Origin: Protoeuglena noctilucae
Taxonomy: Eukaryota
Direction: 5' to 3'
NCBI GenBank assembly: GCA_958009085.1
Contig: OY253671.1
Span: 1,364,001 to 1,428,000, forward strand
DNA: 64,000 nucleotides
The notes below the pieces were generated by a model. The model had not been told where the DNA came from. It did no database searches and was given only the letters and a program-made list of their open reading frames with translations. Below are positions 35,764 to 43,817 of the stretch, piece by piece; position 1 is the first letter of the stretch; the number at the start of each line of letters is the position of its first letter. The translations under genes and the position numbers were made by a program.

Positions 35764-37114
35764 TCAGTCGCCCTTGGGACGCCCCAACCGCCCTCCATCG
35801 CCGCCGTCCCTCTTAGCAGCGGGCGGTGTGTCGTATGCCTTGGCGTACGTGTAGAGCAAAAAGCCGCCCGTTGCCACTGCGGCCATGCGACACTGGTCAG
35901 GGCTGTGCAACCTTACTCCTCTGGGCGCCTGCTCGCATCACAACAGCGCCACTGGCATGCGGCGGCCTCGCCTGTGTACCCCAGGACCTGTGCTGGGGTG
36001 ACGGACTCTTGGTAGGCGAGGACGCCAAGCAACACGATGGCGACGTTGCGCACCGTGGCCCACACCTTGACCGTGAGAGACCCAGCAGCACGGACGGCCA
36101 GGAAGGCAGTGGCCTGCACGGCTGCCGAGGACAGCACCTGCGGCAACGGACGACAGTGTGAGCGCGGCAGAGCGGGCACGACGGCCGAACCGGGGCGCAG
36201 GTGGCAATTGTGCTTAGTATCAAGTCACCAGCAGGGAGAAGAGGGCCGGGTGCCTCAGGACCGGCCACATGGGGCCCCTGCTGCCTGGGGTGCCCCCCGC
36301 GAGGTCCGCCTCGTGTGCAGCCTGGAGACGCAGGATCTCTGGCACCTCGTACATACCCGCAAAGATCCCTGCGAGGAGAGGGTCGTGGGCCCATGCCACA
36401 CGCGTTGCGGCGGGAGCAACAGCACTATGCACGCCCACCCTCTGCGCTGCGCTGCGCACCGAGCATGAGTGCCTGGAGGGGTGCCACGAACGCCAGCGCC
36501 TCGACGGTGTCGAGCCCGCGTGCCCCGTGCATGTTGGCCTGCATAAGCACGACCCGCAGGCTCTCGGCAAGGACGGACGCCATCATCGCAGCGATGCCGA
36601 GGAGCGAGAAGCTGGGCTTGTCCGCCTCGAGCAGCGCGCAGGCGCCGGTGCCCGCGGCGATGAGGGCAACGCCGGACGCGGAAGCCAGGGACCAGGGCTC
36701 GAGGCCGCACGCCACGAGCATCGCCATCGTGACGGCGGGCATGGCGGCTTTGATGATCTGGATGAAGGCCATGGAGAGGAGACCGTAGCTGAGGTTGCCC
36801 AGGTACAGCGCAGCTGCCCCGAGGGCCGCCATGGGCACGATGGCCGTCAGGGAGCGGTGCAGGGACGGGACGATGCGTCGGGCTGGGGGGCGCGCCGACC
36901 ACAGCAAGGCGCCGGCGAGGCCAGACGCGGCTGAGCCTGCCACGCACAGCGTGCAGGGGAAGTTGAAGCGGAGCTCCACGGCTGCAGTCCGCTGCAGCAC
37001 GACCATGAGCGACGAACAGCCCATCCACAGGGCCACGCTGGCTATGGCCGCTGCGAGAAGGGCCGGGGCGGGGCTGTGTGCTGCGGAGGATGTGAAGCTT
37101 GGAAGACATGGCAT
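35764..37114 (-). CDS. TPT / nucleotide-sugar transporter family membrane protein
   Basis: FNFPCTL, LYLGNLSYGLLSMAFIQIIKAAMP, LAESLRVVLMQ, GSLTVKV, and after splicing QVLGYTVATGGFLLYTYAK. Many hydrophobic helices. Confidence 0.85.
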
Positions 37115-37619
37115 CAATCTGCACGATCCGCACCTCCGGCGCGGCCCATCCCGCTGAACAACGACATTGGTCGTTCACGCTTCGCATCGAGCGTCGGCGA
37201 GCACGTCGAGGACGTCTCCGCATGTCCTGCTGCTGCTGCTGCTGTAGTCAGGACGTTTGTAGAGGCCGGGGGCACCACTTTCGGCCGCAATTACCACTTG
37301 GAGTGTCACTCCTGGTGAGCCAAACGTTTTCCACAGTTTGGTGCTCGCGTCCACGCCAACCAGGGCTAAACTTGGCCAATCCGTTTCACAATGCTACTTA
37401 TCGCGGATTTCTTTACTGCAATGATGACTTGGCAACTGGCGAAGCTTCAGCCCCACGAGCTCGAATGCAGGAAACGAGGCGACACACTTGCGAGGAGCGA
37501 CATTTGCACATGCCCGGCTGCAAAGCACGGCTGTGTTGCATGGCTCATCAGCTGGCTACCAAAGAAACGGAGGGGCTGAACGGGGCGGGTGTGGATGGCA
37601 AGGTGGCGCAAAGCAGCCG

Positions 37620-40600
37620 TCATGCGTTGCGTGCAAACTTCTCAGGTTTGGCCCAGATGCGCTTGGCAATGTCGTCCTTCGGGTACGGAAAGAGCTTGTC
37701 GACGATGCCGATCAGATTTGCGCGGCGCTGGACCTCCTGCGGGCCGGCACGGGAGGCCGCTGTCCGCAGTGCCCAGCAGCACTGGCAAGGAAGCCACCAG
37801 TCACCCACAAAGTCCTTCTCGCCTGGAGTTTGATCTGCTCCTCGTCCGTCAATCGCGGCACGAGCGCCCCCGGCGTGTTGTCCAGCGATGACGCGTAGTT
37901 GCCCCGGTGGGTGCGGAAGGTCGTCCCCCCCCGAGTAGTGAAGCGCTGGTAGTTGATATCGTACTTCTCGTGGAGCGCGCGGAGGATGGGCTCCGTGTAG
38001 TGCAAATTCTCAAGCGTCTCCCTCTGCGCGGACACCGGGCGTCGCATCACGCCCGTGTGCACCTCGCAATGCCCACCTCGCAATGCCCACCTAGGCACAG
38101 GGCTTGCGCAACATCCCTCGCCTTTGCCAGATCCTTGTTAAGCTTGTGCTCATGAAGACGGTGCGCGCTGAGCGAGATGCGGGCCTTGAACCGTGCCAGC
38201 TCACCGTTGCTCCGCGCCTGTGTCACCAGCACCTCCCGCAAATCCCGGGCCAGCTGCCCGTCCCACTCTATCTTCACGTTCCCGCTCGAGGGGATGAACT
38301 TGATGCGGGCGTTGCGGGGATTCCTGCAGCGATGGCGACGCCCCTGGCATGTCCCGCCCGGCCCCACCCCAGCAGTGCAGCCCGGCGCAACCCCACCCCA
38401 CGCACCGGAGCCTCCTCCCCTGCAGCAGCAGCTCCAGGGCGTCGTCCATCGTCCACTGGCTGCCCTCAGACACGGGCACCCACCGCGTAACCCCGCCCTC
38501 GCCCTGGACCTCCTCGTGCCGCGTGACGGGGAACTGGAAGAACACGCGCGCCTCGACGGGGCGTGGGGACCCGCGGAGCTCGAACAGCATCGACTGGAAC
38601 TGCCTCGCCAGCTGCTCGGCCCGGGTGGGGTCCTCGACGAGGGCCAGGGCGTGGCCGGTGAAGCGGCCGGTGACGGGGTCGCAGACCAGCGACACGCCCT
38701 TGATGGATGCGAACTGGGACAGGGAGTCCTTGAGGTTCTCCTCTGCGGACCGACAGGCACGAGGCGTGGCGGACAGGAGCCAATGCGGGTGGGGGTGCGT
38801 GCAGGAAGGCGACTGAGCGCACGCGCACCGGGTGTCTGGGTGGAGATGTTGCTGCCGAAGGCGGGCGACAGGCGGGAGAGCAGCACCGCGTGGAGGCAGG
38901 GCTGCGGCGCCACCTCCTCCACCTCCTCGGCCCTCAGCTGGTCCGGGTACTTGTCCCGCAGCAACGCCTCCACCTTTTGGATGTGCTTGATGCGGACCTC
39001 CTTGCGCATCTCCCGGAATACCAATTGCATCTGCGAGCCGGGAATGCGCGGGGGGCGCTGGTCCTGGCCGGCCCGGCATACCAAGGCCGCAGCGCTGCCC
39101 CGCTCAGGGCCCGCCCCGCCCTCGCCTGCCGCCACTGCAAGGCGAGGTCGTACTCGACGGTGTTGGTCTGGCAGAAATGTGCAGACTCGTGCTCCACCGG
39201 CACCACCTCGAGCTGCTCGCCGAACGCCCCCGACAGCGTCGCCCCGTCCGACATCTTCAGCACCCTCAGGTGGCCGGAGAACTTGCCCTTGGTGCTCGTG
39301 GCCTGCAGAAACGGACGCGAACAGGGTTGGGGGCGCCAGGGACGCCAGATTGGCAGGCATGCATTAACAGCGGCCACGATAGCTGCTGGATCCACACCTC
39401 GTACGTCCACGTGGGCCGATGGGCGAGGACGGGTCGCAGGATCGGATCCTTCGGGCCTTTGACGTAGGCGATGTTCAGGACCCGAATGGCCAGCCCCGCT
39501 GACGTCTCGTCGGCAAATTTCGCCCACGCCCACCCCAAGCAGCGGCGCACGTGCTGCACCGCCTCGCCCGGCCCCTGGGCTTGCTGCCAGGGGGCCGCTG
39601 CGTTCTCCGAGCCCAGCACCGCCACGCGCGCCTCTTGCGGACGCAGCCATTCGGGCAGCTGCTCCAACAGCACCCACAGGGCGTCGTCGTCAAAGTGCTC
39701 GCCCAGGTTGTCCAAACAGACAAACGCGCGCGTGGAGGGGTCGACGCCCTCGCCCCACAGGCCCAGCTTCTCGGGCCCCAGCGCCCCGAACCTCCTCTCC
39801 AGCAGACCCAACGCGGCCTCGACCCTGTCCTTGGCGTCTCGGAGCTCTGGCGGGGCATGGCTGGGCACCCAGTCGGGCGCAGACGGGGCGACCGGCCCCA
39901 CTCTTGGCGGCGGGGGCGGGGGAGGGGGTCCCGGCGCGGGCGGGACCCCGCCGTTTGCCACCCGGGGCGCCGCGCCAGGCCTCCGTCGAGGGTCCCGCGG
40001 CGCAGGGCCCACCCGGGCCCCCGCGGGCTCCTCCCACATGGCGATGGGCCCAGCGAGGCCGAGGGGAGACGCGGACGCGGACCCGCCCGGCGCTGGCGGC
40101 GGCTGCACTCGTAAGGGCGCCACAAGCGCGGCTGCAGGCCCCAACCCAGCCCCTGCGCTTCGCCCCGCCGCGGTTGTGGGCGCTCCCTCCCCCTCTACCG
40201 CTCCGTCCCTCTCTTCCCTCGCATGCCCCAACGCGTTGCTCTTCGCCGCCACGTGCAGCTGGTGGCTCTTGATGTCCCCCGTGAAGTCGTTGGCGTTGTT
40301 TTTGAAGTGCTTGGCGACCCGCTCCTCCGTCCACAGCGGGTACTTGTCCTTGAAGACAGGGTCTGCCGCGATGGCCTTGGAGCTGAGGCCGTGCTTGCGC
40401 ACCATGACGTGAAGCTCGTCCAGCAGATCCTCAGACACGCGCGGTGCCACCGACTGCGCCCAAGGCCAGAGACGATGGTGGGCCCGGGCAGAACGGGCAT
40501 GCCGCAGACGGGGCTGCCGCGCACAAACAGCCCCGTCAGCTCTGCGCCAGTGGGTGCGCCAGTCGCGCTCACCTTCTCCATCCCCCGCTGTTTGACGACG

Positions 40601-42810
40601 CCACCGCCGGCCTTGGCAGCCAGGGCCGCCCCCATCCCTCCATGCTCCCGGCCTTTGGCCCCCACAGGGACCGTCGACTTCCTGACGCGATTCCCCATAA
40701 GCTGCCCCGGCTTCGACCCCATCCGCTTCAGCTGTGGGGCTGGCCGTCTCTTCATCACGTCCAAGTTGGCAAGTGCCCCGGCCCGGAAGATGCCGTTGGG
40801 CCGCCCCTGCGCACAGCGGGCGCCATGATCGGTGTCTATTGCCTGCATGCGATCTGGGGTCCCCGCAAACACCGCAGCAGCACTGCCCGCCATCGCAGCG
40901 CCAGACTTGCGCCCACCTCGGCTGTCGCTGCCGGCCTTCGCTCCGCGCCCCGCGATGCCCCCATCCCCACTTTGACGACCCCCGCCCCCGCCGATCCGTC
41001 TTCGCTGCTCTCTGACTCGCTGCTGTCCGAGTCTGACGAGCTCTCCTCGCTGCTCCCCTCGCCTCCCCCAGCCGAGGTGGACCCCCGCGAAGTGCTCTTG
41101 TCAGAGACGTCCTTGGAGTCCTCTCGCACACGCTTCACCTCCGCACGCCTGCCGCCTGCCGCCTGCACCTGCTGTCGAGGCCCCGCCTTGGCCCCCGCCT
41201 CCCTGGACCCACCCCGGCTCTCCGCGTCCCCGACATCCTCGGCGTCCACCCTGCCGGCCTCGCTGCCCCGCAGTGTGCCCCCGTCGCCCACCTCCATCAA
41301 CGCTCGCCTCTCCACGCCCCGACCCGCCTCCGTCTGGGGGCCAGCAGGGCCAGCTCCGGGCCCTGATGCCGGGCCAGCCACCCCCCCGCGGCCCTCGCTG
41401 GCCCCGCGACTCTTCTTGCGGGCCTGTGCCTCCCCGAGAGAAGAGCCCCCTGGCTGCTCCCTCCCTGCCGACCCGGGCCCCGTCTCCGCCGCCGCACTCG
41501 CCCGCCCCCCCTCCGTCGCCCCCTCCTCGGTTCCCTGTGACCCGGCCTCCTGCCCCGATGCCGCCCGCCGCCGCTCCCCCCGGGCCCTGCCCCCCTGCCT
41601 GCCGCGCTTGCGGGGCGTCCTCCGGTGCACCAAGTCGGAGAAGTCCTCCCCGCTGCTCTCCCCGCTCAGCAGACCCGCCTCCTCCTCCGCCCTCTTGCGC
41701 ACGTGCTCCGGCCGCCGATCCTCCACCACCAGCTCCGTGCCCATCGCGGGGTCGCCCTCCCTCGGCTCGTACACGGCGTCCTGGACGATGCGAGCGAGAA
41801 GGTCTGCGAGGCAGCCATAGGGGAGGGAGGGAGAGGACCCGCACAGGGGGCGCGGCTCGCACGCACGCGGCACCCTCCCCACGCTCGCCTGGATCAGACA
41901 CCTCCTCCTCGGTCCACTTCTTCCGCCCCTGCCTGTGAAAGACAACCGTGGGGCGTGCCGCGCGCAGGTTCACGTCCATGTCCATGTGCACACTCGTGGG
42001 GTCGAACGACTCCACCTCCTCCACCCGCACCACGTGCAGCTTGCCCTGGTGCCCCGGCATGAGGGGATCGCAGTAGACATAGAAGTCGCCGGTCTCCTCG
42101 ATGCGACACACCCATCTGGGTGGGCGAGAGGGGAGGCGGCTCTGAAAAACCCGTCCTGGGGTCCTGATAGCTGCCGTCATGTGGTCAGCCCACATGCCAG
42201 AGCTGCAGGCCTGCCTATCGGGCCCATGGGCGCCTATGGCACGTGTCGCCCAGCCTCACCCTGCCCACCACGTGCAGTTCCACAGCAGGTCCACACCCAC
42301 GCCGAGCTTCAGCCTGTTGAGGTCCAGGCGCTGATGTGGGGGTATAGGCCTGCGCAGGGCCAGGACTGCGACCTTGGGAACCGAGGCCGTCAGGCCCCAC
42401 GTCACTCGTGGCTGCGCGCAGACGCGCGTTCACCTGAGGCTCTCCAACGGAACAGCCTGTTCGTCCTTATCGGTCGCCACGGTCGTGTACCAGCCGCTGG
42501 CACCGTCCCTGGTCCACCGGCCATCGCGGACGTCTGGTTGAACCTCGTGGAGCTGGAGGCGCATGACAAGATCGCACGAGTAATATTCGCGCTCTTCTTC
42601 CGAGTATCGCCGGGGGTTCTTGAGCACCTTTGCGGGCCACCAGGAGCTTCCACAGCCTGCGGACACGGGCGGGCACACGTTCCGCGCCTCCGCGTCGAGG
42701 GATGCGCAAAGCGCCAGGAGACGCTCACCAGCTTCACGACATCCCTCCATCTCGACGTATGCGCCTTTCTTGGCCCACTTGGCCCACTCGGGCGGTGACG
42801 CTGGCCCCAT
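37620..42810 (-). CDS. Tandem Agenet + Myb/SANT-like + ASI1-like RRM module + AIPP1-like RRM module, about 13 exons
   Basis: Agenet: GAYVEMEG..GSSWWPAKV..LRPIPP and VDLLWNCTWWAGWV..FYVY. Myb-like: MVRKHG..IAADPVF. RRM1 followed by KFSGHLRV and HFCQTNTVEYDLALQW. RRM2: AVLLSRLSP..EENLKDSLSQF..FELRGSPRPVEA. All junctions traced in frame. Confidence 0.8.
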
Positions 42811-43055
42811 CGCGCCCGAGCGGCGAGCACCGCGGGCCTTCGTCAATCCGATGGCTCAGCCGTTTGCTTCGCCTCATTCCTCTCGCGGAACTAGAGACGT
42901 TCCAGCCCAGTCCAGAGAGTTTAAACTCAGTTTCTTTTTCACTGGCAAGTTGGCGCTAGAACGTGTTTGTTTGAAGCCGTTGTCAACCCCCGAGGCGCTG
43001 CTCCACCCGACACCGCGCTGAGCCCTCCTTCTGCGCGAATGGCGAAAGGCGGGGC

Positions 43056-43817
43056 ATGACGGCGGTGCTTTGGGGGGGGCATGTGGGCTGTCGCAGCTCC
43101 AAGCCGTGCCCCTCGCCAATCGCGCTCCGACGACTTGTGACTGGCGATGTGCTGACACGCCCCGGAATCCATGTGAAACGGCGCGGCAGGCTATGCGCCG
43201 TGTCAAGGCAAGGCGGTGGCGCTGTGTGAAGTCACACGACCTCGGGACCCGTTTTCGATGCGATCTCGCGCCGTGCTGCCCGTCACAGGCGTCCCGGCAT
43301 CGACTACGGGCTCCTCGTCGGTGATGTCGTCGTCCTCCTCGCGACGCTGGTCGCATCGGACCGCATCCCCGCGTCGTCCGAGGTGCCGCTTGGCAGCATC
43401 CTCGTCGGGTGCTGGACTGCAGTATCGATGGCGAAGGGGGACTACCGACGGGGCGCCGAGGTGGACGGCCAAGGCAGCATGGTCGACTTTACGCTCGGGT
43501 TCGACGCGACGAAAGCCCTGGAGGACGTGCTGGGCACGTGGTGTCTGTTCGCCCCGATGTCCATGCTGGTCTGGGCGTACAGCAGCTGGGGCTCTGACAT
43601 GCAGTTCAACGTCGTGCCGACGGAGCGAGCGCACCCTCCAGAGGCCGAGGTGTGACCTAGCTGCTGCCGCCTGCTGGGGCTGCGTGCTGCCTCACCCTGG
43701 CTAATGACCGCACCAACGTCCCCTGTCCTCGTGATGCAGGTCGTCGTTGCCGTCTTCATCACCGCGCTGTGTTGGCGCCTTTCGTGGTGCTGGCTGAATC
43801 CCCCACAGCAGGAGTAG
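43056..43817 (+). CDS. DUF3054-like small membrane protein, probably plastid-targeted
   Basis: LLVGDVVVLL..CWTAVSMAKGDY..TWCL..VVVAVFITALCWR resembles DUF3054. Exon 1 resembles a transit peptide and joins through a GC-AG intron at 43208-43288. Confidence 0.55.

Follow-up and report, generated by a model that had tools for sequence, protein, structure and literature searches.

A single Protoeuglena noctilucae gene joins an ASI1-like RRM-NOPS unit to a second unit that may correspond to AIPP1

The window analysed here, a 64,000-nucleotide stretch of Protoeuglena noctilucae DNA (contig OY253671.1 of assembly GCA_958009085.1, positions 1,364,001 to 1,428,000 of the forward strand), contains on its minus strand a gene for an RRM protein of about 1344 amino acids (aa). 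According to our analysis, this gene is best explained as encoding a nuclear-type chromatin-to-RNA adaptor in which an ASI1-like unit and a unit corresponding to AIPP1 lie on one polypeptide; we put the probability of this reading at roughly 0.6. Profile comparison has shown the first unit to be a specific counterpart of the RRM and C-terminal tail of land-plant ASI1/IBM2, and by its sequence the gene belongs to an unnamed family that combines a reader domain with an RRM-NOPS-RRM-NOPS-like core and a coiled coil. Passages of published work describe ASI1 and AIPP1 as RRM proteins with a direct mutual interaction, both in Arabidopsis and in rice (PMC10852260, PMC9292364, PMC10106862); in passages of the first two, AIPP1 bridges ASI1 to EDM2, and plant ASI1 both binds AIPP1 and favours distal polyadenylation across heterochromatin inside genes (PMC10852260, PMC9292364). 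An original prediction, made from the letters of the window, had placed a fusion of ASI1-like and AIPP1(EDM3)-like modules at 37620..39760. The strings that it quoted (the first RRM, FSGH, SAHFCQTNTVEYDLALQWRQ, AVLLSRLSP, EENLKDSLSQFASIKGV, FQSMLFELRGSPRPVEA, RIKFI, KDLAK and RETLENLHY) are all present on the minus strand from 39760 to 37620, so that the interval holds for the strings, but the gene itself continues upstream to about 42810. What was predicted is thus confirmed as an observation and borne out in part as an interpretation.

Both units are contained in P0001, a protein of 625 aa from a 2208-nt Logan RNA contig, which was the single hit when the RRM1 exon was used in a word-based protein search and which is 100% identical to the window exons. 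A script check found it identical to residues 720-1344 of our gene model; it starts at an internal Met (40039) because the 5' end of its contig is cut, at 40151. We read the protein, from its sequence and from a structure model made with AlphaFold2 (AF2), as two tandem units, each leading from an RRM with a PRP-stretch end to a NOPS-type motif and on to a long helix. The parts, from the N-terminus, are:

41896..42765, minus strand: tandem Agenet-like region, putative chromatin reader, model residues 16-205 (local hidden Markov model, HMM, of homologue N-termini)
39407..39739, minus strand: RRM1, divergent, P0001 residues 101-211, ending in ILRPVLAHRPTW (AF2 RRM topology; aligns to the ASI1 RRM)
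39126..39302, minus strand: exon with the FSGHLRVLK stretch and the NOPS-a motif SAHFCQTNTVEYDLALQWRQ at 39126-39185 (aligns to DBHS NOPS and to the ASI1 tail)
38950..39158, minus strand: helix a, which joins the halves, P0001 residues 263-300 (AF2 helix, pLDDT 76-91)
38534..38898, minus strand: RRM2, P0001 residues 318-410, split by intron 38743-38828 and ending in GSPRPVEA (Pfam RRM_1)
38420..38476, minus strand: NOPS-b-like stretch PVSEGSQWTMDDALELLLQ (family consensus GxPxGSQxVFDRAL)
37961..38265, minus strand: long helix b, coiled-coil-like, P0001 residues 473-541 (AF2 helices 473-530 and 532-541, pLDDT 69-92)
37623..37948, minus strand: C-terminal tail, P0001 residues 546-625 (kept in the open reading frame (ORF) P0009 of a relative at 46% identity; pLDDT mostly low)

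The AF2 model of P0001, built from a 17-sequence alignment, has a mean pLDDT of 63 and a pTM of 0.62, with confident parts at RRM1 (101-211), the joining helix (263-300), RRM2 (335-410) and the long helix (473-530). RRM1 had no Pfam match at E<=1; its model (pLDDT 77-89) superposes on solved RRMs with VIA-align Z of 8-9 and a root-mean-square deviation (rmsd) of 1.4-2.3. RRM2 is recognised as Pfam RRM_1 at residues 333-394 (E 2.5e-7), the sole Pfam domain in P0001 and a generic feature, across the 38828-38743 junction. From the family consensus and the alignment of the model to SFPQ we infer that 38420..38476 is NOPS-like. A long acidic, serine-rich disordered stretch lies between the Agenet-like N-terminus and the RRM units. 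A local HMM of the N-termini of P0006, P0012, P0017, P0019 and P0022 matched the spliced model at residues 16-263 (23.5 bits, E 2.6e-9, against one target), so that a full Agenet-type architecture is probable, though weakly supported, for the window gene. A Myb-like domain before RRM1, suggested by a sub-threshold match in P0004 (E 0.0036), was rejected, Pfam finding no such match in the window.

That the two units are made as one protein is supported by RNA. Over 36900-43600 we compared three RNA runs of one study (X1, X2 and X4) with a DNA run (X6). The quoted strings are contiguous in P0001, and RNA contigs of all three runs splice them together in one frame. Both introns named in the original prediction, 39125-39031 and 38828-38743, are spliced out in all three and remain in the DNA. 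The junction 39126-39030, also found in 3/3, joins the halves, and the single transcript that had been proposed, as opposed to two, is thereby upheld. X2 record 5 spans 37402 to 40151 and X4 record 8 spans 37450 to 39699. The fusion goes beyond chance because RRM_1 spans the 38828-38743 junction and because 18 of the 26 non-self phmmer matches carry the same motifs in the same order.

The relation to ASI1 was established with profiles. One degenerate pattern, H-x2-Q-P-N-x2-E-[FY]-x2-A-x2-W, was used to scan a metagenome collection and gave 65 loci: 52 of land-plant type, nine of a group with the motif start GHFMQPN, the further algal-type locus L014, and three that resemble chance matches (two with a stop inside the motif, one with no HMM match). 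The nine have the algal-type PRP-W-PWG context. The 52 land-plant-type loci are low in GC and carry the motif AVSTSHCSQPNTIEYDMAMEW or close variants, and several are spliced transcripts. One of them, L047, has a 683-aa ORF with Pfam BAH at residues 54-168 and RRM at 509-574, and ends about 40 residues past the motif; L050 is similar, and L022 shows the FSGHIKL stretch and the motif variant that the original prediction had given for ASI1. A protein search with the L047 ORF returned 45 proteins, and the named ones are "protein ANTI-SILENCING 1" of Cryptomeria (55% identity, 98% coverage), Telopea, Papaver, Coffea, Chenopodium, Magnolia, Impatiens, Humulus and Salvia. The ASI1 motifs of the original prediction are in this way found in plant transcripts whose relatives bear the ASI1 name.

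Nineteen ASI1 orthologues were aligned as profile A4, which as a control recovered the solved OsASI1 BAH structures 7xpj and 7xpk from the PDB at E 1e-77; the rice BAH domain is the only solved ASI1 structure that our PDB searches returned. The algal family matched A4 in hhalign with a probability of 99.2% and E 1.5e-19 over about 155 columns, with P0001 residues 98-300 colinear with residues 494-669 of the 673 of Cryptomeria ASI1, up to the ASI1 C-terminus; this end point places the last residues of plant ASI1 opposite about residue 300 of P0001. The N-half alone gave E 5.6e-23 (probability up to 99.5%), and RRM1 with the PRP and FSGH stretches, the fishing motif excluded, still gave E 6.7e-10 over 102 columns. 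The C-half reached E 2e-4 over 60 RRM columns only and had no real match among the 52 plant loci, where a lone row for L022 is a cross-match on the same RRM as the N-half. The first half is accordingly ASI1-like, as predicted; of the predicted ASI1 fusion, the RRM-tail module is held in common, but ASI1 as a whole is not fused here and its BAH domain is absent.

The same tail leads to the DBHS proteins, which are described from animals and in whose dimers the NOPS motif of one chain holds RRM2 of the partner. When a profile of nine family members was run with hmmsearch against all PDB sequences, it matched SFPQ, NONO and PSPC1 at E 3e-22 to 4e-19. Family RRM2 aligned with DBHS RRM2, including its TPRPV end, at 52 bits (7lru_B), and the PHFxQPN..EFE.A..WR motif with the helix that follows it aligned with DBHS NOPS and the start of the coiled coil at 22.8 bits (7lru_B). 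The ASI1 profile A4 found NONO and SFPQ at E 1.6e-6 to 1.3e-5, with ASI1 469-624 colinear with NONO 100-244 (RRM2 and NOPS). Pfam NOPS appeared below threshold only, in P0010, P0017 and P0027 (E 0.006-0.01). Structure comparison pointed the same way: Foldseek with the P0001 model placed SFPQ first (E 6.7e-6), VIA-align placed DBHS chains at the top (Z 8.6-9.4), and residues 319-544 of the model aligned colinearly with SFPQ 370-555, a stretch that comprises RRM2, NOPS and coiled coil (159 residues, Z 9.3, rmsd 4.8). With the model of P0024, which has the C-half only, DBHS chains were the only ones to span about 200 columns. On these alignments, the tail motif common to the algal family and ASI1 is the NOPS motif, a link that is new here, and both the algal family and plant ASI1 are shown to be related to the RRM2-NOPS-coiled-coil dimerisation core of DBHS proteins. 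In the literature collection searched we found no paper that links ASI1, IBM2 or AIPP1 with NOPS or DBHS, and preprint supplements and subscription papers may bear on this point.

The order of the two units is not peculiar to this gene. An exhaustive phmmer search with P0001 against 1.84 billion representatives (E<=1e-3) gave 27 matches, 26 of them non-self, and 18 of the 26 carry both units, in order, on one chain (P0006-8, 10, 12-19, 20, 22, 23, 25, 26, 27). The remainder comprise unspliced ORF calls from this genome or a close relative (P0002, P0003, P0005, P0009), the first large exon of a relative (P0004), the C-half fragment P0024 and two generic multi-RRM proteins (P0011, P0021). The layout of the 18 begins with RRM1 (CxDNxG ... 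GWA..F), PxPRPL..H.P.W, PGHL, PHFxQPNxIEFExAxxWR and a helix, and continues with RRM2 (..AFxQF..DPVT....GHA..MxFxLGGTPRP), GxPxGSQxVFDRAL and a long helix. Pfam recognised Agenet in P0006, P0017, P0019 and P0022 and not in P0012. The module before the double RRM-NOPS core differs among the relatives, being RAMA in P0026, sub-threshold Myb-like in P0004 and Agenet in four, and P0020 has an additional canonical RRM between the two units. A word-based protein search with the RRM1 exon or with the nine-member alignment gave P0001 only, relatives of 25% identity probably being out of its reach, and a search of each half among protein clusters gave generic RRM clusters or low scores only.

In the metagenome collection, the N-half is followed on its own strand, 1-2 kb further downstream, by the C-half at seven of the nine GHFMQPN loci (L004, L013, L016, L017, L023, L025, L027, L030, L041; e.g. 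L017:2032-5317:+) and at L014. The contigs of this group, with about 45% GC, many short introns and the motif GHFMQPNSLEF, represent a relative of the fused type. Upstream of L014, L017 and L030, Pfam recognised no reader domain within 3 kb.

For the second unit, the C-half is in our judgement rather probably the counterpart of AIPP1/EDM3. The assignment is made because AIPP1 binds ASI1 directly, because of the size of At1g05970 (AIPP1), because of the NOPS logic of DBHS proteins and because of the AIPP1 motifs proposed in the original prediction. The gene span of At1g05970 is given as 1512 bp in a part of the PMC9910501 supplement, a size compatible with the algal second unit of about 310 aa plus tail.

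Another origin for the second unit has to be weighed against this one, namely that it is a paralogous duplicate lost in land plants and that AIPP1 is an independent RRM protein recruited later, in which case the gene would not be a Rosetta stone. The two halves are indeed alike (hhalign probability 91%, E 1e-6), so that a duplication within the gene is plausible, and phmmer with P0001 found no plant RRM protein. ASI1, however, retains a NOPS-type motif, which in DBHS proteins holds a partner RRM, and its direct partner, in passages of PMC10852260 and PMC9292364, is an RRM protein. In addition, the original prediction was exact in its ASI1 motifs, and its putative AIPP1 motifs gain some credit from this. 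We regard a lost duplicate as unlikely, but as a serious alternative.

Much less probable is a general splicing or surveillance factor of DBHS or UPF3 type, with no tie to heterochromatin or polyadenylation, which would resemble ASI1 through shared ancestry of the module only. The PDB matches to SFPQ, NONO and PSPC1 (E 3e-22) are as strong as the ASI1 link, and a passage of PMC9177958 places NOPS-like modules in UPF3B as well. The match of the N-half to ASI1 (E 5.6e-23) nevertheless far outscores that of the ASI1 profile to DBHS proteins (E 1e-6), and the chromatin-reader-type N-termini of family members (Agenet, or BAH in plants) speak for action linked to chromatin. A merger of two adjacent genes, by assembly artefact or read-through, is hardly credible: RNA contigs can fuse neighbours, and X1 record 1 does run into the neighbouring gene of the TPT family, but the 39126 to 39030 splice junction recurs in all three RNA runs with the frame open across it, and an identical colinear order is found in 18 other proteins.

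Several observations weigh against our preferred reading of an ASI1-like and an AIPP1-like unit on one chain. The putative AIPP1 identity of the second unit draws on the motifs proposed in the original prediction and on DBHS-type pairing logic. P0001 alone, in the phmmer search, found neither ASI1 nor an evident AIPP1, so that the plant link needs profiles, and part of the ASI1 score is contributed by the fishing motif. ASI1 is only partly represented, as Pfam on the window exons and upstream ORFs found no BAH while the plant controls L047 and L050 were positive. The Agenet-like region is similarly faint, since Pfam on the single window exons found nothing and the 23.5 bits of the home-made HMM amount to a weak likeness. 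Structural support for the DBHS relation is moderate, the DBHS Z of about 9 barely exceeding the Z of 8-9 for single RRMs; with the P0024 model (pLDDT 78.8) the Foldseek matches were weak (DBHS E 2e-3, rmsd 12). DBHS proteins run RRM1-RRM2-NOPS-coiled coil with one NOPS, whereas the algal order is RRM-NOPS-helix-RRM-NOPS-like-helix, the best algal NOPS match preceding the RRM that best matches DBHS RRM2. The algal placing of the fused family is presumed, its members coming from a library without names. Finally, 41380-41603 is bridged by no RNA contig of X1, X2 or X4, so that the 5' part is linked to the rest of the gene through the open frame and through how the homologues are built. A complex prediction for the N-half (95-305) with the C-half (315-545) scored 0.00; the alignment was not used in it and the partner fold was uncertain, so it is evidence neither way.

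If the second unit is AIPP1-like, land plants would carry as two genes what Protoeuglena noctilucae carries as one. The two units may pack as chains do in a DBHS dimer, in which case the NOPS of either unit would lie against its neighbour's RRM and the helices would form a pair. The N-terminus would read a chromatin mark, and the protein could thus tie chromatin state to 3'-end or splicing decisions on nascent RNA, comparable to the ASI1-AIPP1-EDM2 (AAE) complex. A more far-reaching proposal, to which we give slightly less than even odds, is that ASI1 and AIPP1 are halves of an ancient single-chain "double DBHS" protein whose packing the plant heterodimer re-creates, the front module having been swapped: algae would use Agenet and ASI1 BAH, while EDM2 would bring in PHD in trans. 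If this is true, the core of the plant AAE complex would be akin to SFPQ, NONO and PSPC1, the paraspeckle proteins of animals, and a residue-level model would become available of how the complex holds together.

Passages of the published work describe this complex by pull-downs and two-hybrid tests only. Our comparisons suggest that the conserved tail of ASI1 is a NOPS-type partner-binding motif and that the RRM-tail module is older than the land-plant BAH-RRM protein. By analogy, reciprocal NOPS-RRM packing of DBHS type would provide a concrete model for the ASI1-AIPP1 interface, and a natural single-chain version is available for structural expression. The proposal that the module predates land plants is supported for the RRM-tail module if the fused family is, as we presume, algal. 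The locus would in this way link plant RNA 3'-end control at marked chromatin with the animal DBHS family.

The gene lies in a window with a GC content of 64-75% in 2-kb bins and has short spliceosomal introns. The stretch is partly covered by five RNA rows, of which four, marine metatranscriptomes from a single study, contain 47-64% of the sampled words and the fifth 6%. DNA runs of "organism A" contain the whole stretch. Twelve intervals are spliced out in the RNA contigs (X1, X2, X4) and present in the DNA run X6, and intron ends were set to canonical ends after contig comparison. With all 12 introns removed, the frame is open throughout from the ATG at 42810 to the TGA at 37622-37620. The gene model and its introns are:

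37620..42810, minus strand: whole gene model, 13 exons and 12 introns (RNA joints, canonical ends, single open frame of 1344 aa)
42657-42728, minus strand: intron (RNA contigs)
42350-42433, minus strand: intron (RNA contigs)
42116-42259, minus strand: intron (RNA contigs)
41804-41888, minus strand: intron, GC-AG (RNA contigs)
40807-40916, minus strand: intron (RNA contigs)
40454-40572, minus strand: intron (RNA contigs)
39303-39397, minus strand: intron (3/3 RNA runs)
39031-39125, minus strand: intron, GC-AG, between N-half and C-half (3/3 RNA runs; ends GCGAGG..CAG; retained in DNA X6)
38743-38828, minus strand: intron, splits RRM2 (3/3 RNA runs)
38324-38405, minus strand: intron (3/3 RNA runs)
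38024-38121, minus strand: intron, GC-AG, within helix b (3/3 RNA runs)
37737-37822, minus strand: intron, GC-AG, within the C-terminal tail (3/3 RNA runs)

A GC donor (GCGAG) is used in four of the 12 RNA-supported introns (41804-41888, 39031-39125, 38024-38121 and 37737-37822), far above the share of about 1% of introns that is usual in eukaryotes. GT-AG donors for the last two introns were ruled out, the RNA showing GC-AG donors further upstream (38121-38024 and 37822-37737). Inside intron 38024-38121, at 38063-38090, the 14-base unit GTGGGCATTGCGAG (minus strand) stands in two direct copies and gives two decoy GT donors, both unused in the RNA. If intron 39031-39125 were retained, the frame would extend by about 63 codons, up to a stop at 38934-38936, and give an N-half-only product that, like plant ASI1, would stop soon past the NOPS motif; no isoform that retains it was seen, all RNA contigs compared being spliced there.

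The 887-base exon 40917-41803 encodes about 295 residues of low complexity, rich in Gly, Ala, Glu and Ser and including the run SSEESSSDSDSSESESSED, and RNA contig cover is lowest over it. Downstream, on the same strand, lies a gene of the triose-phosphate-transporter (TPT) family (36900-37348, 36428-37174; Pfam TPT E 3e-9), which X1 record 1 (4131 nt) joins to the RRM gene, by overlapping untranslated regions or an assembly merger.

Overall, the protein can be compared with four known systems. The DBHS proteins (SFPQ, NONO, PSPC1 and C. elegans NONO-1) share with it an RRM2 with a TPRPV end, a NOPS motif and then a coiled coil; they have no Agenet or BAH domain, and because the domain order differs the algal protein is DBHS-like and not a DBHS member. 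AIPP1/EDM3 shares an RRM, a generic feature, with the second unit. ASI1/IBM2/SG1 shares the succession of a divergent RRM, a PRP-like stretch, F-x-G-H, the H-x-x-Q-P-N..E-[FY]..A..W motif and a short helix, and both ASI1 and the algal protein have an N-terminal domain of chromatin-reader type, putative in the algal protein, and a long disordered linker before the RRM. ASI1 has BAH, whereas the algal protein has an Agenet-like region instead; ASI1 ends about 40 residues past the motif, whereas the algal P0001 adds 325 residues with a second RRM, a NOPS-like stretch, a coiled coil and a tail. In PMC10106862, rice ASI1 is given as 502 aa with its RRM at 340-416, so that about 86 aa remain for the tail. 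The window gene lacks BAH and goes on past the tail, and for these reasons it does not strictly belong to the ASI1 family. The Agenet-RRM-NOPS-RRM proteins (P0006, P0017, P0019, P0022 and others), of which we found no descriptions and which are just 21-26% identical to P0001, have the same whole architecture as the window gene, probably including the N-terminal reader.

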